Source: a bacterium (GTDB lineage Bacteria; Krumholzibacteriota; Krumholzibacteriia; LZORAL124-64-63). From it: 33,604 nucleotides of DNA. Within the stretch, counting starts at the first letter, position 1. Each line of letters opens with the position of its first letter. Location: assembly GCA_020049465.1 (NCBI GenBank), contig JAIFKS010000168.1:1-33604 (forward strand), in the 5' to 3' direction. Below, piece after piece: positions 12,913-24,243 of this stretch. The translations under genes and the position numbers were made by a program. A model generated the notes under the pieces. The model did not search any database, was not told the DNA's origin, and worked only from the letters and a program-made list of their open reading frames with translations.

Positions 12913-14109
12913 TCAGGCGCCGGGCGTCGTCCGCTCGATCGCCAGCAGCGACACATCGTCGTCGGGCGAACCTCCGCACCAGTCCGTCACGACGGAGGCG
13001 ATCCGGTCGATCCCCGCGCGCAGCGGGAGATCGCGAACCCGCTCGATCTCGGAGATCAGGCGTTCCAGGCCGAACTCGTTCCCGCTTGCGTCGACGGTTT
13101 CGATGGCGCCGTCCGTGTAGAAGTAGAGGCGGTCGCCGGCTTCCAGGGTCAGGCGCTTGGACTCGTACCGCGTGTCTTCGACCATGCCGACCGGCAGCCC
13201 TCCGGCCGCGACCGGGGCGGCCGGCCCGCTTCGCGGCACGAGCACGGGCGCGGGATGACCCGCGACGACGTATTCGATCACGCCGGTTTCAGGGGCGGCG
13301 ATTCCGTAGACCAGCGTGAAGTACTGTCGGGTGCGGTCCATCGGAAACTGGCGATTCAATCGTTCCACGATGCGGGCGGGCGGTACGCTGGCCGCTCTTT
13401 CGCCCAGATTCTCCGTGACGAGGGCTCCCTCTCCGGGCGACAGGAGGTGCGTCAGCGTGAAGGACAGCAGAGCGGCCGCGACGCCGTGGCCGCTGACGTC
13501 CAGGATGTAGATCCCGACCCCGCCGTCAGGCAGGGGCACGATGCCGACCGCGTCGCCGGCAAGGTCATCGCACGGGTGGAAGGCATGAGCGAAATGAAGG
13601 GAGCCGGCATGCACGTCCGGCGGAGGCAGCAGTGACCGCTGGACGCCGGCTGCCAGCCTCACATCCTCCTCGAGCTCGTGTTTCGAGTGCCGCAGCGCTT
13701 CTTCGTCCTGGCGACGTGCCGTCACGTCCGACTGGACGCCGATGAAGTGCGTCAGGCGGCCGGCGCTGTCGTGCACCGGCGTGATCGACAGCCGGTTCCA
13801 GAACGGCTCGCCATCGCTGCGGTAGTTCAGGATTTCGACGAGACACTCGCGGCCGGCGCTCAACGCGGCCCGGATCTCGGCCACCGCGGCCGGATCCGTA
13901 TCCTTCCCCTGGAGGAACCGACAGTTGCGGCCGATCGCCGCCGAGGCGGCGTACCCCGTCATCCGCTCGAAGCCTTGGTTCACGTAGATCAGGGGGCGGC
14001 CGGGCGTCTGCGCGTCGGCGATGGCGATGCCCTCGGCCGCGACATCCAAGGCGCGATCCTTGAGCGTCAGCAGGTCCGCGGGATTGCCGTCGGGTGAGGG
14101 GGCCGTCAC
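12913..14109 (-). CDS. LOV-domain (blue-light, flavin) sensor fused to a PP2C/SpoIIE-type serine phosphatase
   Basis: LOV signature GIAIADAQTPGRPLIYVNQGFERMTGYAASAAIGRNCRFLQGKDTDP, with the adduct-forming Cys in NCRFLQG. PPM phosphatase motifs are in the C-terminal half (GDAVGIVPLPDGGVGIYILDVSGHG…YFYTDGAIE…DDDVSLLAIE). Chosen start is GTG 14109 preceded by GAGGA. The 5' 135 nt of the ORF-track call (to 14244) have low GC3 (gga, tct, ggt, aat, aag, gta…), so that extension is non-coding. Confidence 0.85.
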   Translation of the reverse strand: MTAPSPDGNPADLLTLKDRALDVAAEGIAIADAQTPGRPLIYVNQGFERMTGYAASAAIGRNCRFLQGKDTDPAAVAEIRAALSAGRECLVEILNYRSDGEPFWNRLSITPVHDSAGRLTHFIGVQSDVTARRQDEEALRHSKHELEEDVRLAAGVQRSLLPPPDVHAGSLHFAHAFHPCDDLAGDAVGIVPLPDGGVGIYILDVSGHGVAAALLSFTLTHLLSPGEGALVTENLGERAASVPPARIVERLNRQFPMDRTRQYFTLVYGIAAPETGVIEYVVAGHPAPVLVPRSGPAAPVAAGGLPVGMVEDTRYESKRLTLEAGDRLYFYTDGAIETVDASGNEFGLERLISEIERVRDLPLRAGIDRIASVVTDWCGGSPDDDVSLLAIERTTPGA

Positions 14110-14508
14110 GTGTTCCTCGTCGCTGGAGCCGGGGACATGTCCTCCAGGCGGGCCTCCCCTGCGGTGCGGGGTGAAGCGCCGGAAGAAGTTCGGAGAATTT
14201 ACCTTATTCCCCGCCTGCGCGCCACCAGACAGTCCCCCGAACACGCACCCGATCGGCAGTGCCGTTCACGACGGCGCGCGCAAAGGCCGGTCGCACCATT
14301 TCTGGCACGACCGGCCCCGATTGGGCTGTGGCTTTTTTCATCAGCGCGGCTTCTCACACGGAGACCGCGAAGTGGCCGACGCCCCTGCCGCACACAACGG
14401 GTGTGAGGTTCTCCAGACGCCAGCGCAAGACTGGCTCCGGTTGCGGTGCAGGACATGTTGGGCGGCAGGGGCGCGGCGCTCCCATCCGTGCCACGGCCCG
14501 TCGTTTCC

Positions 14509-15060
14509 CTACAGGTTGCCCGGGATCAGCACCGTGTCGATGACGTGGATGACGCCGTTGCTCGCCACGACATCGGCCTTGATGACCTTCGCGCCCGACA
14601 CCTTCACGCCGTCGGTGGCGTCGATCGTCAGCTTGGTGCCGTTCAACGAGTCGGCGCTCTTGATCTTCACGACATCGGCGGCGCGCACATCGCCGGCCAC
14701 CACGTGGTGCAGGAGCACCTTCTTCAACTGCTCGGGGTTGGCCAGGAGCTTCTCGACGGTGCCTTCCGGCAGCTTGGCGAACGCCTCGTCCGTCGGCGCG
14801 AACACCGTGAACGGACCCTTCTCCGTCAGTGTCGCCTGCAGGCCGGCGGCCTTCACGGCGGCGGTCAGCGTTTTGAAGCCGGCGGCTTCGGCCAGCGGGA
14901 AGATGGCCATCGGAGCGGCAGCAGCCGCGGCCGGCTTCGCGGCGGGATGCTCCTTCGCCTTCGCGGTCGGATGCTCGCTGCCGGCGGCGATGGTCAACTG
15001 CGGGGTCACGACCAGGGCGACCAGGGCCGCCGCGATCAGGGAGCGGGTGTGCTTCATCAT
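14509..15060 (-). CDS. Fasciclin (FAS1) domain protein, secreted
   Basis: ATGATG at 15060/15057. Signal peptide MMKHTRSLIAAALVALVVTPQLTIAAG. FAS1 motifs TVFAPTDEAF…LLHHVV…TVLIP. The ORF-track start at 15174 lies in an AT-rich promoter island. Confidence 0.85.
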   Translation of the reverse strand: MMKHTRSLIAAALVALVVTPQLTIAAGSEHPTAKAKEHPAAKPAAAAAAPMAIFPLAEAAGFKTLTAAVKAAGLQATLTEKGPFTVFAPTDEAFAKLPEGTVEKLLANPEQLKKVLLHHVVAGDVRAADVVKIKSADSLNGTKLTIDATDGVKVSGAKVIKADVVASNGVIHVIDTVLIPGNL

Positions 15061-15130
15061 GTCTGTATCCGTCCTTGGGCTGGGTGTTGTCTTTGGTGTC
15101 GTCTTCTTCGTCGCTCTTTCCACATCACCC

Positions 15131-15159
15131 ACGATAGCATCGTATATATTTTGTGTCAA
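15131..15159 (-). promoter_or_regulatory. Sigma70-like promoter (minus strand) for the fasciclin gene inside an AT-rich island
   Basis: Minus-strand reading: -35 TTGACA (plus 15154..15159), 17-nt spacer, -10 TATCGT (plus 15131..15136). ~70 nt upstream of ATG 15060. Confidence 0.4.
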
Positions 15160-15218
15160 GATATAAATGTACATTATTTATACACAAACAGGGGTAAACG
15201 AGATTTTTGGCTAACTCA

Positions 15219-15229
15219 TTGTTTGATAA
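15219..15229. promoter_or_regulatory. Shared 11-mer TTGTTTGATAA (minus-strand TTATCAAACAA), copy 1, ~160 nt upstream of the fasciclin ATG
   Basis: An identical 11-mer lies at 21380..21390, ~165 nt upstream of the histidine-kinase operon ATG. Both copies are in AT-rich islands, each followed 70-80 nt later by a -35-like TTGACA/TTGAAA. The flanks contain AACTCATT / AATGAGTT, which are reverse complements of each other. Confidence 0.3.
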
Positions 15230-16297
15230 TTAGTTAAGGATTTCGTTCAGCGCCTGGGCAAAGTCCGCTGACTTCGCGATCAGGCGTCCATCGATCGCCG
15301 CAAGCGTCTCCGCGTAGCTGGACGCCGCCGCGCCGCCCACCAGAAGGCCCACTTCCGGGGCCAGCAGGCGCCGCAGCGTCTCCAGTTGTCCGGCCACGAC
15401 GGCATCGCCGGCGGGATAGATCAGGCTCACGAAAACGGCGCGCGCCTGCCGCTGGGCCGCCGCCGCCGCGATTTCCTCGGCGGGCAGATCGGCGCCCAGG
15501 TAGAGAACGGCCCAGCCCGCCTCGAGCCCGAGCGAAGCGGCCATCAGGGCGCCCAGTTCGTGCCGGTTGCGCAGCGGCGTGGCCACGACCAGCAGAGGGG
15601 CGCCGGAATCGGGCACCTGGCTCGCGTTCGCGGCGGCCAGGAAGGAATGGACGATGGTCGAGGCCATGTGCTCGTGCGCGATGCGCAACGTTCCCTGGCG
15701 CCACAATTCGCCGACCCGGGTCAGCAGCGGTGCGAGCAGCTCCTGCCTGAGCACCGGCCGGCTCAGATGCAGGGTCGCCTGCGAAAGCACGTTTTCGAGG
15801 CCCGAGGCATCGAGCGCCGCCACCGCCACCAGGGCCTGCTCCAGCAGCATGTCGGGTGACAGGACCGCTCTTTCGGGCAGGGGACGGCCGGTACGATCCG
15901 GACGCTCCTCACCCGCCGAGCGGCCGGCCGTCGGCATCGCCCCCGGCCCCAGCGCTTCCACCAGCGCCCGCAACTCTACCAGCGGCTGATTCGCCACTTC
16001 GCCGATGCGGTGGTCCGCGGCCGTCAACACGCGCAGCAGGGAAAGCCGTTCGATGTCGAGCTCGGAATAGCGCCGACGCCCCGTCTCCGTGCGCCCGGGC
16101 AGCACCACGCCGTACCGCCGCTCCCAGGCCCGCAACACGAGCTGGCTCAATCCCGTGCGCCGGGCCACCACGGCAATGCTGTGGCGCGGCGTCGTGTCGG
16201 GTGCGGTGGCGGTCGGGATGTGGGCTCCGGGATTCACGGCGGGGACTTTCGTTGAGGGCGGGGCTGGTGACGAACATTCTGGCGTGATGTTAATCAA
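15230..16297 (-). CDS. CarH/LitR-like light-responsive transcriptional regulator: MerR-family HTH + cobalamin (B12)-binding domain
   Basis: HTH HSIAVVARRTGLSQLVLRAWERRYGVVLPGRTETGRRRYSELDIERLSLLRVL aligns with CarH (…[31 protein letters not shown]…). C-terminal B12-binding motifs NRHELG (DxHxxG-type), SLIY and LLVGGAA. The ORF-track start is TTG at 16297; GTG at 16246 or 16237 are alternatives. The stop at 15230 is firm. Confidence 0.85.
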   Translation of the reverse strand: MINITPECSSPAPPSTKVPAVNPGAHIPTATAPDTTPRHSIAVVARRTGLSQLVLRAWERRYGVVLPGRTETGRRRYSELDIERLSLLRVLTAADHRIGEVANQPLVELRALVEALGPGAMPTAGRSAGEERPDRTGRPLPERAVLSPDMLLEQALVAVAALDASGLENVLSQATLHLSRPVLRQELLAPLLTRVGELWRQGTLRIAHEHMASTIVHSFLAAANASQVPDSGAPLLVVATPLRNRHELGALMAASLGLEAGWAVLYLGADLPAEEIAAAAAQRQARAVFVSLIYPAGDAVVAGQLETLRRLLAPEVGLLVGGAAASSYAETLAAIDGRLIAKSADFAQALNEILN

Positions 16298-16303
16298 TTG
16301 TAT

Positions 16304-16325
16304 AGTATTTGTCCATCAAAATACT
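16304..16325. promoter_or_regulatory. Imperfect inverted repeat AGTATTTG-tccat-CAAAATACT in the AT-rich divergent CarH-like / SRPBCC promoter region (candidate operator)
   Basis: Seen directly in the sequence. It sits between the divergently transcribed regulator and SRPBCC genes. Confidence 0.3.
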
Positions 16326-16851
16326 GCCGGAATCCGACGCGGGGGTCTGCCCGACCCGCGCCCCGGCTCCTCCGATCCGGGAGCTGCCCGTGACCCCCCA
16401 TCTGCTGACCAGCGAACAGTTCGTCCCCCGCCCCCGCGACGAGGTGTTCGCCTTCTTTGCCAAACCGGAGAACCTCGGGACCATCACCCCGCCCTGGCTG
16501 GACTTCCGCATCCTGACGCCGTCACCGGTGCCGATGGAGCGCGGCGCCCTGATCGACTATGTCATCCGGGTGGGACCGGCGCCCACGCGCTGGCGCACGC
16601 TGATCACGCGGCACGAACCGCCGCACGCCTTCGTCGACGAGCAACTGCAGGGCCCCTACAGCTTCTGGCACCACACGCACACCTTCGAGGAGACGGACGG
16701 CGGCACGATCATCGGCGACCGCATCCTCTATGTGCTGCCGTTCGGTGTCCTCGGCGTGATCGTCGAACGGCTGTTCATCCGGCGCCAGCTGCAGGCCATC
16801 TTCGCCCACCGGCGCCGCGTCATCGCCGAACGATTCGGCGGCCAGACCTGA
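16309..16851 (+). CDS. SRPBCC (START/Bet v1/polyketide-cyclase-like) ligand-binding family protein
   Basis: …EQFVPRPRDEVFAFFAKPENLGTITPPWLDFRILTP…YVIRVGPAPTRWRTLITRHEPPHAFVDEQLQGPYSFWHHTHTFEE…RILYVLPFGVLG is a typical SRPBCC fold pattern. The start is ATG 16309, or GTG 16390 preceded by GGGAG. Confidence 0.7.
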   Translation: MSIKILPESDAGVCPTRAPAPPIRELPVTPHLLTSEQFVPRPRDEVFAFFAKPENLGTITPPWLDFRILTPSPVPMERGALIDYVIRVGPAPTRWRTLITRHEPPHAFVDEQLQGPYSFWHHTHTFEETDGGTIIGDRILYVLPFGVLGVIVERLFIRRQLQAIFAHRRRVIAERFGGQT

Positions 16852-16861
16852 TCCGGCCGGA

Positions 16862-18460
16862 CTACGCCATCGCGCAACCAAGGCACGGTCGCTCGACGCC
16901 CTGGTCCGGATTGTCGCGCACCACGGCGGCGAATTCGTCGCTGTGAGCCAGGAATACGTCCAGAAGCTCGGGATCGAAGTGGCGGCCGCGGCCCTCCCGC
17001 ATGGTGGCGAAGACTTCGTCCGCCGGTCGCGCTTCACGGTACACGCGCCGGCTGCTCAAGGCGTCGAACACGTCGACGATGGCGGTGATGCGGCCCTCCA
17101 GCGAGATCTCCTCGCCGGTCAGACCACGCGGATAGCCGGTGCCGTCCCAGCGCTCGTGATGCTGAAGGGCGATGCGCGCGGCGACGCGCATGATCCGCTG
17201 CTCCGACTTGCAGAGGATCCCGTGGCCCAGCGCGGCGTGGTTCCGCATCACGGCGAACTCGTCGGGTGTCAGCCGGCCCGGCTTGTTCAGGATCCGATCG
17301 GGGATGCCGACCTTGCCCACATCGTGCATCGGCGCCGCCATCCGGATCACCGCCGCCGTCTCGGCATCCACCCCCGCGTGCAGCGCCAGCATCCGCGCCA
17401 TCTCGCCGACGCGCAGCACGTGGTTGGCTGTTTCCAGGCTGCGGGCCTCCACCAGTTCGCTCAGGGTGCGGATCATCTCGCGCTGGCTCTCGATGATCTC
17501 GCGCGTCAGGCTCGCGTTCGCGTAGGCCAGCGTCACACTGGCGAAGTAGACGCGCATCAGGTCGCGCTCCAGGCGGGGCAGTGTCCCGACGCCCACCAGC
17601 ACGAACAGCAGTTCGTCGGCGCCCGCATGTCCGGCCGGGCAGCGCCCGCAGCAGACGTCATCACGCCACACGATCGATTTTTCGGCGGCCGACCGCGCGA
17701 GCATTTCGCGCACACCGTCGTCGAGCATCCCTTCGACGGGAGTGCCCACGCGGTCGGCCCAGGGCCCCGTGCCGGCAGCCAGCACAAAGCCCTTTTGCCG
17801 CCTCCGTGCGGCAAATCCCTGGGGCGCCGGCCCGGCGCCCCGCCGGGCGATCGCCAGCAACTGCGCCAGGACCTCCCCGGCGAATTCCCTCTGTCTGCCG
17901 CCGTGCAGCAGGGCGCCGCTGGCGTCGAGCACGTGCTGCAGGCTGCGCCGGCTCTGCTCCAGGGCGCGGATGTCGCGCCACGCGCGCAGCGCGCTGGTCA
18001 CCGACGTGCACAGCTTGTCGGCCGTCAGTTCCGTCTTGGCGCGGTAGTCGTTGATGTCGTAGCGCATCACCACGTCGCGTTCGGGCGCCTGACCCGGCTG
18101 TCCCGTGCGCAGGATGATCCGCACGTTGTGGTTCCCCAGCCCCTCCCGCACATGGTGCGCCAGGCGCAGGCCGGCGTCGTCGCTCTCCATCACCACATCC
18201 AGCAGGATCACCGCGATGTCCGGATGGGACGCCAGCACCACGCGCGCCTCGGCCGCCGAATAGGCCGCCAGCAGGCATACCGGACGCCCTTCGAAGCGGA
18301 AGCGGCCCAGCACGAGACGGGTCACGTGATGCACGTCCTCCTCGTCGTCGACCACCAGCAGCTTCCAGCAACTGTGGTCGGCGCAGTTGGCCATGGCCGG
18401 CTCGTCGGCGAAGCGGATCTCGTCGCCCGTCCCGAGGATGTTATCCATCGCTTCCGGCAT
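16862..18460 (-). CDS. Response regulator (REC) fused to an HD-GYP c-di-GMP phosphodiesterase domain
   Basis: REC: KLLVVDDEEDVHHVTRLVL…VILLDVVMESDDAGLRL. HD-GYP: …HAGVDAETAAVIRMAAPMHDVGKVGIPDRILNKPGRLT…HHERWDGTGYPRGL. ATG 18460 is preceded by GGAGG (6-nt spacer). It overlaps the upstream kinase gene by 20 nt. Confidence 0.9.
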   Translation of the reverse strand: MPEAMDNILGTGDEIRFADEPAMANCADHSCWKLLVVDDEEDVHHVTRLVLGRFRFEGRPVCLLAAYSAAEARVVLASHPDIAVILLDVVMESDDAGLRLAHHVREGLGNHNVRIILRTGQPGQAPERDVVMRYDINDYRAKTELTADKLCTSVTSALRAWRDIRALEQSRRSLQHVLDASGALLHGGRQREFAGEVLAQLLAIARRGAGPAPQGFAARRRQKGFVLAAGTGPWADRVGTPVEGMLDDGVREMLARSAAEKSIVWRDDVCCGRCPAGHAGADELLFVLVGVGTLPRLERDLMRVYFASVTLAYANASLTREIIESQREMIRTLSELVEARSLETANHVLRVGEMARMLALHAGVDAETAAVIRMAAPMHDVGKVGIPDRILNKPGRLTPDEFAVMRNHAALGHGILCKSEQRIMRVAARIALQHHERWDGTGYPRGLTGEEISLEGRITAIVDVFDALSSRRVYREARPADEVFATMREGRGRHFDPELLDVFLAHSDEFAAVVRDNPDQGVERPCLGCAMA

Positions 18461-21218
18461 GGGATGCCTCCACGTGTTGCGGGATGACCACGGAGAACCG
18501 GGTGCCCTTGCCCGGCGCGCTCGCGCAGGTGATGGTGCCGCCCAGGGCGTGCTTGACGTTGCTCCAGACGATGTGCATGCCCAGGCCGGTTCCGCCGCGG
18601 TTGCGCCTGGTCGTGTAGAACGGCTCGTACAGGCGCTGTTTCTGTTCCCGGTTCATGCCGCGGCCGTCGTCCCTGTATTCGATGACGACGCCCTGGCCGC
18701 CGCTCGTGGCCGAGATGGTGATGGTGCCGACCAGGAGGTCCTCGAATCCGTGATCCAGGGAATTCACGACCAGGTTGGCGATGATGCGGTACAGCGCGCC
18801 CGGATCGCCGTGCATCATGATGCCGCGCGGACAGTCGACCAGCAGCCGGTGCGCCGTGCCCTTGAAGCGCGGCCGCAGGCTCAGCACGATCTCGTCCAGG
18901 TATTCGGCCAGGTCGAACTCCCGCTCCTGCGCGCTGGACTGGTCCACCGCCACCTGCTTGAAGTTCTGGATCAGGTCGGCCGCGCGGACCAGGTTGGCCT
19001 GCACGGCGCCTGCGGCCTGGCTCATCGATTCCAGCAAAGCAGCCAGGCCCGAACGCGTCAGCCGGCCTTCCCGCAGGCTCATGCCGCCCTCGGCGCAAAG
19101 GTCCGCCAGGTGGGACGCGGCCGTCACGCCGATGCCCACCGGTGTGGCCATCTCGTGCGCGACGCCGGCCACCATCGCGCCGAGCGCCGCCATCTTCTCG
19201 GCCTCCAGAAGCGCCTGGTGTGCGTCGATGACCAGCTGCGCGTTGCGCCTTTCGGCGGTCACGTCGCGGGCCACGCCCTCGACCGAGATGACGCGGCCTT
19301 CGGCGTTCAACACGGGAACGGCGTGGATCTCCAGCACCAGCCGCTCGCCGTCCGCTCGCGGAACGATCACGTCGAAAGGCAGCTGCCGCACACCGCCGGT
19401 CACGGACACCAGCCGCCGGCGGACCGCCGCGTTGGCCGGTAGCGACATCCATTCGCGCGAGCGCTGGTTCAGCGCGTCGAGGTCCGTCAGTCCGGTCAGG
19501 CTCCGGAACGAGGAACTGACGAACGTGAACCGGAGCTTCGGGTCGTGCGAATAGAAGATGAACCGGTCGCCGAGGCTTTCCATGATGCGCCGATAGCGTT
19601 CCTCGCTGTCGCGCAGCGCCTCGTTGGCGGAACGCAGTTCCGCGGTTGCGGCTTCCACGCGCTTCTCCAGATCCTCGTTCAGGAGCCGCACGCGCTCTTC
19701 ACTGTTCCGCAGCGCCTGCTCGGACAATTTCCGGTCGGTCACGTCCCGCAGCGATTCGATCGCTCCCGCCATCCGGCCGTCCCGATCGCGCAACGGCGCG
19801 GCGGTCATGCCGACGTGCGCGCCTCGCCCCCCGTGCAGACCTGCCAGATAGCGCTCGGCGCGCAGCGTTTCGCCGCGCGAATCCACGCCGTGCGCGGCCG
19901 TGAGCCCGCCCTTGCCTATCCCGGCCAGGATGAGATCGACGAGATCCGGCACCGCGTCGCCGCACAGGACGTTCGCGTACGCGCGTTCGCCGCGACCGAG
20001 CATCGCGTCCTTGCCGATGCCGGTCATCTCTTCCAGCGCCCGGTTCCAGGACACGATGCGGCCCCGCTCATCGACCACGAAGGTGGCGTCGGGCAGGAAT
20101 TCGAGCGTGTCCGCCAGCCTTCGGTGCGCGGCGTCGCGTTCGTGGTCCGCCTGACGGCGCTGCCAGGCGCTGGCCAGGATCTGCCCCACGGTCTCCAGCA
20201 GCGCGACGTCCTCATCGGTCCAGTGCCCCACGCTGCGCACGGAATGGAAGGCGAAGAGCCCGGCGATGCGGCCGTCGTGGAACATCGGGATGATGAGGGC
20301 CGACCGCGTCTCCTGTTTCAGCAGCCGTTCCTTCACGGCCGACGCCGCCACCGGCATCGCCGCGACGTCCTCGATGTGCACGATGCGGCCGGCCGCGACC
20401 TGCTTCTGCAGCCAGGGCAGCGCCGGCAACGACGGCGCCATGTCCTTCAACGCCACGGGCTCGACGCCCTCGGCGGCCCAGCCGAATTCCCAACTCAGCG
20501 TCGCCTGGTCGTCCAGCAGCCGCCCGACGAAGCAGCGGTCAACCGTCGCCAGGCCGCCGACCGCCACCAGGGCGCGGGTCAGGGCATCGTCCATCTCGCC
20601 TTCGGTGGCCGAGGAAATGGTGCGCAGGATGTTGGTGATGGCCGCCGACGCGGCGCGCCTGTGGTCCAACTGGGCGCGGGACAGGCGTTCGGAACTGAGA
20701 TCCGTGAAAACGCAGCGCAGGCCGCGGACACCTTGTCCGGCCTCGCCGATGATGGGCGCCGCCACGACGCGGGCCGGCATGTCGTCGTGTCCGGCCAGCG
20801 CCAGGTCGAATTCGCCGACCGCCGGCACCAGGCCCTGTTCGGCTTCGGCCAGCAGGCTCATGAAGGCCGCACGCTGCGCCGGGTGCACCAAGTGCGTGAC
20901 CGGCGCGCCTTCGAGGCTGGTCCCGACGGCGGTCGCCAGCGGCGAACTGGAACCGTCGTGAACCAGAAGGATCACGCCCCGGTTGTCGGTTTCGACGATG
21001 AGTTCGGGAAGAAGCCGACCGAGGTCACGGATCCAGCGGCGGTAGGCCGGCTGCTCGCCCTCGAGGGGCGGCGAAGCCTGGCCGGATCCGTCGGCCTTCC
21101 AGCGGATCAGGCGGGTCAGAGCCAGAGCCAGGGCCGCGCCCGCCGCCACGGGCACCATCGCGCCCAGGTCACTGATGGCGGCGGCCCTGTATACAATTTG
21201 TGCCCAATCCGCAGACAT
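18441..21218 (-). CDS. Multi-sensor hybrid-type histidine kinase (TM, GAF, multiple PAS domains, coiled coil, HisKA-like H-box, HATPase_c)
   Basis: ATG 21218 is preceded by GGGAGA (5-nt spacer) and a TM helix (DLGAMVPVAAGAALALALTRLI). GAF (…HIEDVAAMPVAASAVKERL…IIPMFHDGRIAGLFAFHS…), PAS (…FVVDERGRIVSWNRALEEMTGI…), H-box GVAHEMATPVG, ATPase G-boxes (DDGRGM…GGTGLGMHIV…GKGTRFSVVIP). The ORF-track start at 21311 lies in the AT-rich promoter island. Confidence 0.9.
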   Translation of the reverse strand: MSADWAQIVYRAAAISDLGAMVPVAAGAALALALTRLIRWKADGSGQASPPLEGEQPAYRRWIRDLGRLLPELIVETDNRGVILLVHDGSSSPLATAVGTSLEGAPVTHLVHPAQRAAFMSLLAEAEQGLVPAVGEFDLALAGHDDMPARVVAAPIIGEAGQGVRGLRCVFTDLSSERLSRAQLDHRRAASAAITNILRTISSATEGEMDDALTRALVAVGGLATVDRCFVGRLLDDQATLSWEFGWAAEGVEPVALKDMAPSLPALPWLQKQVAAGRIVHIEDVAAMPVAASAVKERLLKQETRSALIIPMFHDGRIAGLFAFHSVRSVGHWTDEDVALLETVGQILASAWQRRQADHERDAAHRRLADTLEFLPDATFVVDERGRIVSWNRALEEMTGIGKDAMLGRGERAYANVLCGDAVPDLVDLILAGIGKGGLTAAHGVDSRGETLRAERYLAGLHGGRGAHVGMTAAPLRDRDGRMAGAIESLRDVTDRKLSEQALRNSEERVRLLNEDLEKRVEAATAELRSANEALRDSEERYRRIMESLGDRFIFYSHDPKLRFTFVSSSFRSLTGLTDLDALNQRSREWMSLPANAAVRRRLVSVTGGVRQLPFDVIVPRADGERLVLEIHAVPVLNAEGRVISVEGVARDVTAERRNAQLVIDAHQALLEAEKMAALGAMVAGVAHEMATPVGIGVTAASHLADLCAEGGMSLREGRLTRSGLAALLESMSQAAGAVQANLVRAADLIQNFKQVAVDQSSAQEREFDLAEYLDEIVLSLRPRFKGTAHRLLVDCPRGIMMHGDPGALYRIIANLVVNSLDHGFEDLLVGTITISATSGGQGVVIEYRDDGRGMNREQKQRLYEPFYTTRRNRGGTGLGMHIVWSNVKHALGGTITCASAPGKGTRFSVVIPQHVEASHAGSDG

Positions 21219-21379
21219 GGACGTCTCCCAAGCTGGGTACATCCATGTCGTGAACCGGTCCCGGCGCCTTCCGAGAGGGGAAGAGTACGCGGCCGCTGGA
21301 AGCGATTTCAAGACGTTCTAATAATTTCACTGATATCAGCATACGGAAATCCCTAATTACAATGAGTTATCGATTCGGT

Positions 21380-21390
21380 TTGTTTGATAA
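21380..21390. promoter_or_regulatory. Shared 11-mer TTGTTTGATAA, copy 2, ~165 nt upstream of the histidine-kinase operon start
   Basis: Identical to 15219..15229; lies in the AT-rich intergenic island 21219..21478. Confidence 0.3.
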
Positions 21391-21478
21391 GAAATGATTG
21401 CGAAACCCTGCGGGAAGTGATGGGATGGGAAAATCACATGCTGCGGCTAGGGCTACACTTTTGTTAAGTTATTTATTG

Positions 21479-22471
21479 TCAACCAACTAATGCGGTCGCC
21501 ACGGAAGCCGCCCGGGCCAGCGGCAAGCGGATCCGGAACAACGCCCCACCGAGAGGCGAATCGCAGACTTCGACCCCCCCTCCCAAACCGGCGGCACAGG
21601 CCTTGACCGAGAACAATCCGAGTCCGTTGCCGTCGGATTTGGTCGTGGCCAGCGACGTGAACAGGTCGGCCCGCCGTTCCACCGGAACCCCCGGACCGTT
21701 GTCGTGCACTTCGATCACGGCCTGCCCGTCCCTGGCGGACACCTGCACTTCGACGACACCCTTCGCGCCGGAAGCCTGTGCGGCGTTCAGGACCAGGTTA
21801 CCCACCAACTGGTGCATCAGGACGGGATTGGCGTTGATCACCACACCGGGCTCACCTTCGCAGGACACCCGGCACCGCCGCATGTCGACATGCGAACGCA
21901 GCACGGCCACCGACTCGCGCGCCGCTTCGCGCACGTCCAGCGGCGCGCCCTCGCGCGTCACGATGGCCTGCGCCGAGTCCAGCAGGCGCTGGTTCAGACC
22001 GACCAGGCGCTTCACCGAATGGCGCAGACGCGTCAGGTTTTCACTGCCGCCGCCGTCCTCTTCCATCATGTCGAGATCCGCGAGCGCCACGGTCAGCACG
22101 TTGTTGGCGTCATGCGCGATCGAAGCCGCGGTCAGGCCCGCGAAAACGCGCCCCTCGTTCACCACCAGCGCCTGTTCGCGCCGCAGCAGTTCGCGGGCGT
22201 CATGCTCCATGCGCCGCATGGCCCAGCGCGCGCCCGCGAAGATCAGCAGCGACGTCACCGCCACATAGAGCACGCCCTTGATGGTCTCGATGCGCCGCAG
22301 TTCCTCGACGCTGTGGGAGGCGCCGGCGGCCAGGTACCCGGACAGGATGATGTAGGTGGACGCCAGCAGGACGTAAGCGCCCGCCAGCATGGCGGCATAG
22401 CGGGTGCTGTTCAAGCCGGAACCTCCGGTTGGGATGGGCACTGCGACGCGAGTCACCGGACGATCGGACAT
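21479..22471 (-). CDS. Small membrane-anchored histidine kinase (2 TM + HisKA-like + HATPase_c)
   Basis: ATG 22471 is preceded by GAGG (4-nt spacer). TM helices (AMLAGAYVLLASTYIILSGYLAA; VLYVAVTSLLIFAGARW), H-box LTAASIAHDANNVL, ATPase motifs (NLVLNAAQAS…DNGPGV…GNGLGLFSV). Confidence 0.8.
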   Translation of the reverse strand: MSDRPVTRVAVPIPTGGSGLNSTRYAAMLAGAYVLLASTYIILSGYLAAGASHSVEELRRIETIKGVLYVAVTSLLIFAGARWAMRRMEHDARELLRREQALVVNEGRVFAGLTAASIAHDANNVLTVALADLDMMEEDGGGSENLTRLRHSVKRLVGLNQRLLDSAQAIVTREGAPLDVREAARESVAVLRSHVDMRRCRVSCEGEPGVVINANPVLMHQLVGNLVLNAAQASGAKGVVEVQVSARDGQAVIEVHDNGPGVPVERRADLFTSLATTKSDGNGLGLFSVKACAAGLGGGVEVCDSPLGGALFRIRLPLARAASVATALVG

Positions 22472-22947
22472 GAAACCTCGTTCTCGATACCGTTGACGAT
22501 GCGACAACGGGGTTGCCGCGATCATAGGGAATGCCGGACCCGGCCGTCAATCGCGGTCACTCCGGTGCGGACGCCAACCCACCGGCCCACAGAGCCGAAG
22601 CCGGCGAATCCGGACCTTTTCGAAACGTCAACACCCCGGACGACGACGATCGGCCTGTTCCCGTCAAGCAAGCCCGCGGCAATCGGTTGCGCGCCTCGCG
22701 ACCCGCCGAGGCGGCGCCCCGACCGCGCGCGGACCTGCCCGCAACGGCAGCCTCTTGCAAACGCATGTCCATTTCCTCTAGAGTCACCGCGAGCGCCGGG
22801 ATCGCCCCGGGATTCAAGACGCGCGGCGCCCATCGCAAACGGTCTCCACAACAGGAGTGCGCGCGATGCAGCCAGAAACCGGCGGCGATACAGACCTTCC
22901 CGCTCCCAACACCGCCGATCTCCAGCTGACGGTCACGCACTGCCACC

Positions 22948-22968
22948 GCGCCGGATTTTTTCCGGCGC
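22948..22968 (+). promoter_or_regulatory. Hairpin GCGCCGGA-UUUUU-UCCGGCGC ~20 nt upstream of the lipoprotein ribosome-binding site (possible 5'-UTR structure or bidirectional terminator fragment)
   Basis: 8-bp perfect stem with a U5 loop, seen in the sequence. Function unknown. Confidence 0.25.
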
Positions 22969-22989
22969 CATCGGAAGCGAGGGTGAATC

Positions 22990-24243
22990 ATGTCCACTCG
23001 TTTTGCGCGGTCGATCCTGATCATGATCATGGCCGGCTGTGTGCTGCTGGTGATGGCGTCGTGTTCCGAGAACATACCGACCTCACCCGACGCGGAGGCG
23101 GCGAAACGCGCGGGCGGTGTCGCCCGGCATGACAACCCGCCTCCGGCCGACCAGGCGACCGTCACCATCGACGGCACACCGGTTGTCTTCTGGCCCTACA
23201 CCGGCACCAGCTTCGACGGAACGCCCGTCGATCCCATCAACCTCGTGTTCGCCGGCGAGGCCGATCCCCTGCAGATCCGCGCCGCGCTGATGGCGCTCAG
23301 CGGCGACCGCTCCGCGTTCGGCATCCCGCCCATCCCACCGTTCAACGCGCCATGGCAGGACGCCATCGGCGGCGACGTGCAGACCACCTGTGCCGTCGGC
23401 GGCGACGGCTGGGTCGGCAGCGTCGTCCAGTTGACGCTCGGCGAATTCGGTCCGCTGCGGCTCCACCTGCGCCTGTTCCGCACCGGCCAGGAGGCCGGCG
23501 GCGGCCCGGTCACGCTGGGCGGAGCCCACTTCGAGCTCAACATTCCGGGCACGGCCGACCACCAGGTGCTGAGCTGGGAACTGGCCGAGCAGATCGTCAT
23601 GGCTGACCTCGTCCGCAGCGGCCTGCTGGGGGCGGCGCCGGCGCCGACCGGGTTGATCAACGCCGCGCCGACGTTTCGCACGATCATGAAGGAGGTCTAC
23701 AACGGCCTGCCGCCCGCACTGGTCGGCCTGATCGGCGGACCGGCGCAGCCCGTGCTGGCGGACGTCCCCTTGCCCTCGGACGGCCAGGGCAAGCTGTTGC
23801 GTCTGGCCTTCGCCGCGCCGCTGGAACCGGGCACCTGGGACCGGATGGTGACGGTCAACTATGACCAACTGGTGCCGCGTCCGTTCTGCAGCGAAGGGCC
23901 CGGCGACTTCCTGCTCGTGACGGGGCCGGTGGAATTCACCGCGCGCGGCGAACTGTCGCCGGACGGATCGTACACGAGCCACAATGCCTTCGTCGGCATC
24001 CTGCGGGCGGTGCCCGTGGACCTGTCCACCGGCACACCCGTGCCCACGGGTCCCGCGTTCCCGGCCCGCGTCTCGGGACACAGCAGCGTCACGCTCGATG
24101 CCTGGAATGCCCGCGTCACCATGCAGGACCGCCGGTTCACGCGCGAGCCCGACGGGGTGCAGGTGAAGCAGATCTGGATGAACATCCCGCAGCAGGGCCT
24201 GAAGACCGTCCGCACCAGGCTCAGCTGCATCGACGAGAGCTAG
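22990..24243 (+). CDS. Lipoprotein of unknown function (417 aa)
   Basis: ATG 22990 after GAGGGTG. Signal peptide plus lipobox MSTRFARSILIMIMAGCVLLVMASC|SEN. Globular, protein-like composition. Confidence 0.75.
   Translation: MSTRFARSILIMIMAGCVLLVMASCSENIPTSPDAEAAKRAGGVARHDNPPPADQATVTIDGTPVVFWPYTGTSFDGTPVDPINLVFAGEADPLQIRAALMALSGDRSAFGIPPIPPFNAPWQDAIGGDVQTTCAVGGDGWVGSVVQLTLGEFGPLRLHLRLFRTGQEAGGGPVTLGGAHFELNIPGTADHQVLSWELAEQIVMADLVRSGLLGAAPAPTGLINAAPTFRTIMKEVYNGLPPALVGLIGGPAQPVLADVPLPSDGQGKLLRLAFAAPLEPGTWDRMVTVNYDQLVPRPFCSEGPGDFLLVTGPVEFTARGELSPDGSYTSHNAFVGILRAVPVDLSTGTPVPTGPAFPARVSGHSSVTLDAWNARVTMQDRRFTREPDGVQVKQIWMNIPQQGLKTVRTRLSCIDES

Follow-up and report, generated by a model that had tools for sequence, protein, structure and literature searches.

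Gene content of the locus and its AT-rich spacers

The present analysis concerns a 33,604-nucleotide (nt) stretch of DNA from an uncultured bacterium of the Krumholzibacteriota (contig JAIFKS010000168.1 of the assembly GCA_020049465.1; hereafter, the window) and, within it, three short AT-rich islands that precede, respectively, a gene for a fasciclin-domain protein (island 1, 15120-15235), a carH/litR-like regulatory gene (island 2, 16285-16325) and an operon encoding a histidine kinase and an HD-GYP protein (island 3, 21300-21480). The original prediction, made from the letters of the window, focused on an identical 11-mer that is contained in islands 1 and 3 and was taken for a shared cis-element of the two promoters. 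Related loci used for comparison are denoted by L numbers.

The gene map was derived from the GC content of third codon positions (GC3) in the reading frames, combined with Pfam domain assignments. The genes in the region of interest encode a PAS/LOV-SpoIIE phosphatase (12913-14244, minus strand), the fasciclin-domain protein (14509-15063, minus), the CarH/LitR-like protein with a MerR helix-turn-helix and B12-binding domains (15230-16237, minus), an SRPBCC protein (16390-16851, plus), a receiver-DUF3369-HD-GYP protein (16862-18460, minus), a GAF-PAS-PAS histidine kinase (18441-21218, minus) and a second histidine kinase (21479-22525, minus). The HD-GYP protein and GAF-PAS-PAS kinase genes comprise the operon downstream of island 3 (16862-21218, minus), and all genes adjoining the two copies of the 11-mer are on the minus strand. 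The PAS-SpoIIE (PP2C) phosphatase contains the LOV signature GRNCRFLQG; a blue-light sensor (LOV) and a B12-dependent sensor are adjacent in this locus.

Against the overall GC content of 68.5%, the GC fraction drops to 0.32 in island 1, 0.24 in island 2 and 0.39 in island 3, and 40-nt segments with 45% GC or less are found only in these islands and in three minor patches elsewhere in the window. All three islands are strictly intergenic, the low-GC stretches being 80-260 nt long and restricted to the spacers. These values and locations, together with the conserved -35 elements described below, bear out the proposal that low-GC islands occupy the promoter regions of the sensory genes.

Putative CarH-type operators upstream of carH and the fasciclin gene

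The product of the carH/litR-like gene matches the Pfam families MerR_1, B12-binding_2 and B12-binding, and contains the Wx9EH motif (WRQGTLRIAHEH) and the B12-ligand histidine within the sequence RHELG; its closest relatives of solved structure are the Thermus CarH/LitR proteins (5c8d and 3whp, E = 1e-23). Scans of genome and metagenome collections with the CarH-like protein yielded 122 loci. The nearest of these, at 62-72% identity, come from metagenome-assembled genomes that are either unclassified or carry the label Candidatus Krumholzibacteriia, and further relatives (75-82% identity) emerged from a protein search. The order carH-fasciclin, with both genes in the same orientation, is seen in at least 19 loci.

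Published CarH operators are built of tandem 11-bp repeats of the form nnnnTnnACAn, one of which contains the -35 element (PMC9304148). The paired pattern TNNACA-N5-TNNACA occurs three times in the window, compared to 0.12 expected occurrences, and solely in islands 1 and 2, where the TnnACA repeats coincide with two sigma-70-like promoters detected by a consensus scan. The carH promoter (16287-16315, minus) carries three such repeats in tandem, TGGACA-N5-TATACA-N5-TTAACA (16315-16288, minus), of which the first is the -35 hexamer and the last overlaps the -10 element TAACAT; the corresponding pattern T(G/A)GACA-N5-TATACA-N5-TTAnCA is present in 17 of the 18 related carH upstream regions. The fasciclin promoter and its CarH-type operator (15131-15184, minus), delineated by the consensus scan and by alignment of relatives, consist of TGTATA (15184-15179), TGTACA (15173-15168), the -35 element TTGACA (15159-15154), TATATA (15148-15143) and the -10 element TATCGT (15136-15131). 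The key columns of the arrangement TGTAnA-N5-TGTAnA-N8/9-TTGAC-N6-(T/A)(G/A)TAC(A), followed by a -10 element of the form TATCnT, are invariant in all 11 aligned fasciclin promoters, and the same arrangement is found in further, distant relatives. Both -35 hexamers, TGGACA and TTGACA, lie within repeats at conserved positions. Counting the repeat that holds the -35 element, the fasciclin promoter has four repeats placed around this element. In island 2, the repeats are all in tandem; in island 1, the upstream pair fits TnnACA only on the opposite strand, and the palindromic TGTACA fits in either orientation.

Read in the direction of transcription, the 11-mer is TTATCAAACAA; it contains no in-register TnnACA and is located 34 nt upstream of the first repeat of island 1; in addition, island 3 lacks tandem repeats altogether. 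The sequences that do fit a CarH operator are the TnnACA repeats elsewhere in islands 1 and 2 rather than the 11-mer.

Islands 1 and 2 fit CarH-type operator-promoters of a light-response locus. Judging from the literature on CarH and the geometry of the repeats, B12-bound CarH would, in the dark, occupy the TnnACA repeats that overlap the -35 elements of the carH and fasciclin promoters, and in the light, CarH would be released such that both promoters fire. Under this scheme, CarH probably represses its own gene in the dark, and the fasciclin gene, the predicted light-induced target of the island 1 promoter, is most likely switched on by light as CarH falls off. The likeness to the CarH/LitR systems of Thermus thermophilus, Bacillus megaterium and myxobacteria includes the tandem 11-bp nnnnTnnACAn repeats, one of them with the -35 element, and the placement of the operator next to a gene for a MerR and B12-binding protein that possesses Wx9EH and the ligand histidine; the promoter of carH is itself a target, a predicted one in the window. 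The differences lie in the host, an uncultured, high-GC lineage of the Krumholzibacteriia type; in the predicted downstream target, a fasciclin-domain protein rather than carotenoid genes; and in the layout of the fasciclin promoter, which has a 2+2 inverted organization (TGTAnA-N5-TGTAnA ... TTGACA-N5-TnTACA) instead of an all-tandem array. CarH-type operators, known from Thermus, Bacillus and myxobacteria, would extend to an uncultured high-GC phylum.

A fasciclin-domain gene adjoins carH in more than 25 loci (window 14509-16237; L003-L008, L056-L068, L073, L090, L093, L105, L111, L112 and L117), usually following carH immediately and in the same orientation; some distant loci have one to three copies upstream or divergent. 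The fasciclin promoter carries CarH-type repeats. No paper in the literature searched deals with CarH/LitR together with fasciclin, and the role of the fasciclin gene as a conserved neighbour and likely target of CarH seems to be undescribed there. Light induction of the fasciclin-domain protein is predicted to be widely conserved.

In several more distant relatives (L006, L008, L062, L064, L067, L068 and L117), a GC-rich intrinsic terminator separates carH from the fasciclin operator. The clade of the window has no such terminator, and because of this, carH and fasciclin may be partly co-transcribed in this clade. A further, partial CarH-type repeat pair, GGCACA-N5-TATACA (minus), is present in TGTATACAATTTGTGCC (21188-21206), within codons 5-11 of the kinase gene and in a patch of AT-rich rare codons; it may be a chance occurrence or an internal operator. 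The gene callers also predicted a 35-residue hydrophobic open reading frame (ORF) antisense to the fasciclin leader and promoter (15059-15166, plus; also L129, 13295-13402), which is probably spurious. Antisense promoters on the plus strand were considered and rejected on the sequence.

A conserved composite module at the promoter of the kinase/HD-GYP operon

Orthologues of the GAF-PAS kinase, with 69-82% identity, were identified in six further lineages, and the upstream regions of all seven, including the window, were aligned; the alignment holds regardless of whether the upstream gene encodes the second kinase or proline dehydrogenase. The island 3 promoter (21282-21311, minus) consists of the -35 element TTGAAA (21311-21306), an 18-nt spacer and the -10 element TACTCT (21287-21282; consensus TAYYCT), with the positions of both hexamers conserved in the seven lineages and TTGA of the -35 element invariant in 7/7 kinase promoters. 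The simple consensus scan missed this promoter owing to the weak -10 element.

Several conserved blocks surround this promoter. The most distal one, TTCCCGCAGGGTTT (consensus TTCCGGGAGGGTTT; 21403-21416, minus), is followed by the block GTAACTCRTTGTAAWTACGGRAATCCGTA (21369-21342, minus), the first part of which is the inverted counterpart of the word TAACTCATTGT in island 1, discussed in the next section. Directly 3' of the element TAACTCATTG within this block lies a 14-bp palindrome, TAGGGATTTCCGTA (consensus TACGGAAATCCGTA; 21342-21355), and the block (G/T)ATATCAG (21330-21337, minus; TATCAG at 21335-21330) separates the palindrome from the -35 element. Downstream of the promoter, a conserved inverted repeat in the leader covers the start codon (21248-21215, minus). 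This repeat, ACATGGA ... TCCATGT, is present in 7/7 lineages and would engage both the start codon and the GGAG ribosome-binding site in pairing; most of the pairs are invariant, so that covariation is uninformative on the structure.

In L005 (4262-4275), a more distant relative, TACAGAGATCTGTA takes the place of TACGGAAATCCGTA; both half-sites have undergone the same change, as would be expected if a dimeric DNA-binding protein and its site had evolved together. The palindrome is considered a probable dimeric-regulator site. A sequence model of the island 3 module produced significant matches only at kinase promoters in 388 kb of related DNA; in the window, the only other matches were in island 1 and were sub-threshold (E = 0.29 and 0.33). 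A search with the palindrome only found no site outside the kinase promoters.

The weak -10 element is combined with a conserved upstream module of about 40 bp, centred at approximately -55 to -90 and consisting of TAACTCRTTG, the palindrome TACGGAAATCCGTA and TATCAG. From this conservation, it appears most likely that a dimeric regulator would bind the palindrome with its flanks upstream of the weak kinase/HD-GYP promoter; one word of the module, or the site of an associated protein, would then also be found about 90 nt upstream of the predicted fasciclin start. The arrangement resembles class I-type sites, centred at about -60 to -90, through which dimeric activators or repressors act on sigma-70 promoters: it combines a palindrome with flanking words, the promoter downstream of it has a good -35 element and a weak -10 element, and the half-site change in L005 is mirrored. 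It differs from such sites in that the module is an approximately 40-bp composite and that TAACTCRTTG recurs on its own, in either orientation, after carH.

The box recognized by BldD of actinomycetes has the form TNAC-N5-GTNA, and BldD is an actinobacterial protein. The island 3 sequence TAAC-TCATT-GTAA fits this pattern, which we take to be a lead only, and the operon encodes an HD-GYP protein, HD-GYP being the family of c-di-GMP phosphodiesterases; the copy in island 1, TAACTCATTGTTT, differs in being off the pattern. No BldD homologue was seen, though no search aimed at one was made. Two other readings of the region were rejected: an extracytoplasmic function (ECF) sigma promoter formed by GTAAC...CGTA, in which the spacer would be 20 nt and thus too long, and an FNR-type half-site at TTGAT, for which there is no second half-site.

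In L003 and L004, the kinase/HD-GYP pair is missing from its place between the SRPBCC gene and the second kinase; in L140, L143 and L148, the pair adjoins the proline dehydrogenase gene, with no carH nearby. The predicted operator-promoter module travels with the kinase/HD-GYP operon. The block TTCCSGSAGGGTTT is found about 130 nt upstream of the predicted kinase transcription start in all lineages (window 21403-21416; L005 4203-4215; L138-L148). In L143, but not in the window, this block makes up the 3' side of a hairpin resembling a terminator (CCTCCCGG...CCGGGAGG, with a T-run after it).

The element shared by islands 1 and 3

The original prediction mentioned two flanking 8-mers (AACTCATT/AATGAGTT) that are reverse complements of each other, an observation that holds and was understated: the match extends to 11 nt, TAACTCATTGT at 15212-15222 (plus) being the exact reverse complement of 21359-21369, and it is conserved. 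Copy A of the element, TAACTCATTG(T), at 15212-15222 (plus), is antisense to the genes, follows the carH stop codon by 8 nt and is separated from the first TGTAnA repeat by 37 nt; copy B, at 21359-21369 (minus), is in the sense orientation and is centred at about -89 from the predicted transcription start. The centre of the element is about 90 nt upstream of the predicted transcription start in both islands.

Comparison across genomes traced this element to equivalent positions in both spacers. Among the kinase promoters, TAACTC[AG]TTG is exact in 5/7, has one mismatch in L139 and is diverged in L146 (CAAGTTGTTG); among the island 1 spacers of relatives, TAACTCRTTG is exact in L060, and one-mismatch versions are present in L134, L135, L137 and L005. 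In 390 kb of DNA from this clade, the exact element occurs seven times (0.33 expected), and all seven occurrences belong to the five kinase promoters, in the sense orientation, and to two carH-fasciclin spacers (window and L060), in the antisense orientation; one-mismatch versions occupy equivalent places in L005, L134, L135, L137 and L139. Five lineages agree on the placement of the element in island 1, where the carH stop codon precedes it by 8-12 nt and the first operator repeat follows it by 36-37 nt. In L005, TAACTCATTG is absent from the kinase promoter and present after carH (10948), in the sense orientation. When carH-fasciclin spacers were compared to kinase promoters in all pairs across genomes, most pairs shared just 7-9 nt. 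Of the twelve shared words of 10-12 nt, seven were (G)TAACTC(A/G)TTG(T), namely, those shared by the spacer of the window with L140, L143 and L148, by the L005 spacer with L143 and L148, and by the L060 and L134 spacers with L138; the other five were unrelated chance words in GC-rich distant spacers.

Because the cross-genome matches and the enrichment fall on TAACTC[AG]TTG, the true shared element is this flank rather than the 11-mer, and by its conserved positions and enrichment, TAACTCRTTG qualifies as a genuinely shared, conserved cis-element of islands 1 and 3. Of the claim of a shared cis-element, therefore, one part stands, namely, that islands 1 and 3 share one beyond chance, and the identification of this element with the 11-mer is replaced. 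The island 3 module, with its word common to the carH-fasciclin spacer, seems to be undescribed in the literature searched and provides a concrete probe for the regulator of the kinase/HD-GYP operon. Elements of both sorts, CarH operators and the sites of upstream-binding regulators, are already known; those in the window add new members from an uncultured phylum, none surprising in kind, and these findings open no long-standing question.

Occurrence and evolution of the 11-mer

In the window, the 11-mer TTGTTTGATAA is exact only at 15219-15229 and 21380-21390, both on the plus strand as written (the genes being transcribed from the minus strand), with no further copies at one mismatch or fewer and no near copy at three mismatches or fewer. 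Copy A directly follows the carH stop codon (15230-15232) and, counted from where fasciclin transcription is predicted to start, is at about -95 to -105; measured from its 5' end, it is 166 nt from the fasciclin ATG (15063), and it precedes TTGACA by 70 nt. For copy B, the start predicted for transcription of the GAF-PAS kinase operon gives a position of about -105 to -115; the kinase ATG (21218) is 172 nt away, and copy B precedes TTGAAA by 79 nt. The identity of the two words, their similar distances from the start codons and the presence of -35-like hexamers 70-80 nt further on were thus all correctly noted, and both hexamers are conserved -35 elements. The 11-mer is not an assembly artefact because five independent metagenome contigs (99.7-99.9% identity) that cover copy A all retain it, and both of those that also reach island 3 retain copy B.

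The islands are far more AT-rich than the window, so that shuffling of the whole window overstates the significance of the 11-mer. With dinucleotide shuffles of the two spacers, a shared word of at least 11 nt in either orientation has P = 0.016, and for any pair among the three islands, P = 0.029. Two matches of at least 11 nt between the two spacers, as found here, arise in 2e-4 of the shuffles; some real relation exists between the island 1 and island 3 spacers. In island 1, the 11-mer and the inverted 11-nt word overlap by TTGT and jointly form an 18-mer; in island 3, the two words are 10 nt apart, on opposite strands. Direct alignment of the two spacers revealed no extended similarity beyond these words, and the gapped local alignment was marginal (P = 0.03-0.09).

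In contrast to TAACTC[AG]TTG, the 11-mer is not maintained in relatives. The exact word has no match in 1.5 Mb of fetched related loci, and TTATCAAACAA is absent at one mismatch or fewer from every orthologous spacer. Copy B aligns to a non-conserved A-rich tract in the six orthologous kinase promoters (CTTGAAAAAAA, CTTGAAAAAAT, TCTCGAAATAA and similar). Copy A is partly retained in the closest clade only, as TTATCAAGCAA, TTATCAATCAA and TTGTAAAACAA, and is lost in more distant relatives; the sequence after the carH stop codon is TTATCAAACAATGAGTTAG in the window, TTATCAAGCAATGACTTAA in L137, TTATCAATCAACGAATTAG in L135 and TTGTAAAACAACGAGTTGC in L134. In both islands, the 11-mer lies outside all conserved modules, beside the shared element TAACTCRTTG. 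Nor does it behave as a dispersed repeat, such as a miniature inverted-repeat transposable element (MITE) or a repetitive extragenic palindrome (REP), given that it has two copies in the window, no flank similarity and no copy in the related loci. From these alignments, the 11-mer in island 3 is read as a lineage-specific variant of an A-tract, and it seems rather probable that its identity with the word in island 1 is a coincidence of two A/T-rich tracts without shared function.

The three AT-rich islands are best explained as regulatory spacers within a gene cluster for light sensing, carried by a high-GC bacterium, and we consider the explanation as a whole, with the coincidence of the 11-mers included, reasonably well favoured. 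As this case illustrates, a striking exact repeat shared by AT-rich promoters can tell less than anything else in the region: once relatives were compared, the signal moved to the adjacent motif and the TnnACA repeats. Several observations weigh against this explanation. With respect to the operators, the fourth repeat of the window's fasciclin promoter is degenerate (TATATA), and the 2+2 inverted layout of island 1 is unlike the characterised, all-tandem CarH operators. As for the 11-mer, the probability of even one shared word in the island-restricted shuffles is only 0.016-0.03, and in both islands this word is no more than about 10 nt away from the truly shared element, such that, by a rough estimate, the joint chance of the coincidence occurring beside that element is well below 1%. 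Furthermore, TTATCAA directly after carH is kept in the nearest relatives (L135 and L137, along with the window), so this half of the 11-mer may be constrained in island 1, and the positions of the two copies relative to the predicted starts differ by 10 nt, about one helical turn.

Alternative explanations of the 11-mer

Most of the same observations, namely, the two exact 11-nt matches common to both spacers, the adjacency of both copies to the conserved element, the retention of TTATCAA and the helical phasing, favour a different view, that of a single regulator with a bipartite site composed of TTATCAA and the quasi-palindrome YAAYNNRTTR (CAATGAGTTA/TAACTCATTG), which would co-regulate the fasciclin gene and the kinase/HD-GYP operon from about -90 to -110. 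We regard such a regulator as possible but doubtful. The 11-mer is found in 0/6 orthologous island 3 promoters; TTATCAA and the quasi-palindrome are separated by 1 nt in island 1 vs 14 nt in island 3, a poor fit to one rigid protein; and the island 3 block model produces only sub-threshold matches in island 1, with the E values given above. It is likewise a tentative and rather unlikely idea that TAACTCRTTG together with the lineage-specific TTATCAA makes up the operator of an undescribed regulator that ties the CarH light response, at the fasciclin promoter that follows carH, to the kinase/HD-GYP operon. If true, this would amount to a light-to-c-di-GMP regulatory link specific to Krumholzibacteriia-like bacteria, with the 11-mer as a second contact recently gained in this species.

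An explanation at the RNA level is considerably less plausible than a bipartite site. Here, a hairpin at the carH stop codon, with the 5' arm in the last codons (TTAACT), the 3' arm AGTTAG and the 11-mer as the loop, would act on the stability of the carH mRNA or on read-through into fasciclin, and copy B would be unrelated. The arms do change together (TTAAGT/ACTTAA in L137 and CAATT/AGTTG in L134), and more distant relatives have a true intrinsic terminator at the equivalent position. However, the stem comprises only 6 A/U-rich pairs with a 15-nt loop (fold of -7 kcal/mol, z = -1.9) and is not followed by a T-run, and the opposite orientation of the motif in L005 points to a DNA-level rather than an RNA element. 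An Rfam search over 14000-23000 gave no matches at E <= 1, and the fold z-scores against shuffles are -1.9 for copy A and +1.4 for copy B, that is, there is no stable fold at either. The suggestion that the 11-mer is part of a small RNA or an untranslated region is also at odds with its location, both copies being about 95-115 nt upstream of the predicted transcription starts.

Very improbable, too, is a rearrangement scar left by short-patch ectopic conversion, template switching, target-site duplication, or the ends of a mobile or invertible 6.1-kb segment. Such an origin could account for exact direct and inverted 11-mers without a mismatch at a distance of 6.1 kb and for the derived state of copy B relative to its orthologues. 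Nevertheless, the carH-fasciclin and promoter-kinase junctions are both ancestral in relatives; the direct repeats do not flank the inverted ones, contrary to a duplicated target site; and conversion anchored on the inverted element would put the 11-mer on the other strand. The 6.1-kb segment encodes no transposase or recombinase, and with both junctions ancestral, it was rejected as a mobile or invertible element. A 25-nt inversion turning copy B into copy A was rejected as well, the present layout of island 3 being ancestral in all orthologues.

Hardly credible, finally, is a site for IHF, HU or another nucleoid protein, or a xenogeneic-silencer target on horizontally acquired AT-rich DNA: the 11-mer contains TATCAA, half of the IHF core, and the islands are AT-rich against their background, but the IHF consensus WATCAANNNNTTR has no match in the window on either strand, the 11-mer copies included (the TTR part is missing in both), the AT-rich stretches are short and confined to spacers between genes of normal GC3 (0.81-0.88 in the flanking genes, like the rest of the window), and the locus is syntenic with relatives whose promoters are similarly AT-rich. 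Neither the IHF-like site nor the xenogeneic silencing envisaged originally is supported.

The island 1 18-mer (TTATCAAACAATGAGTTA) has six exact matches in IMG/VR viral contigs (L123-L128), which we judge compatible with chance for an AT-rich 18-mer.

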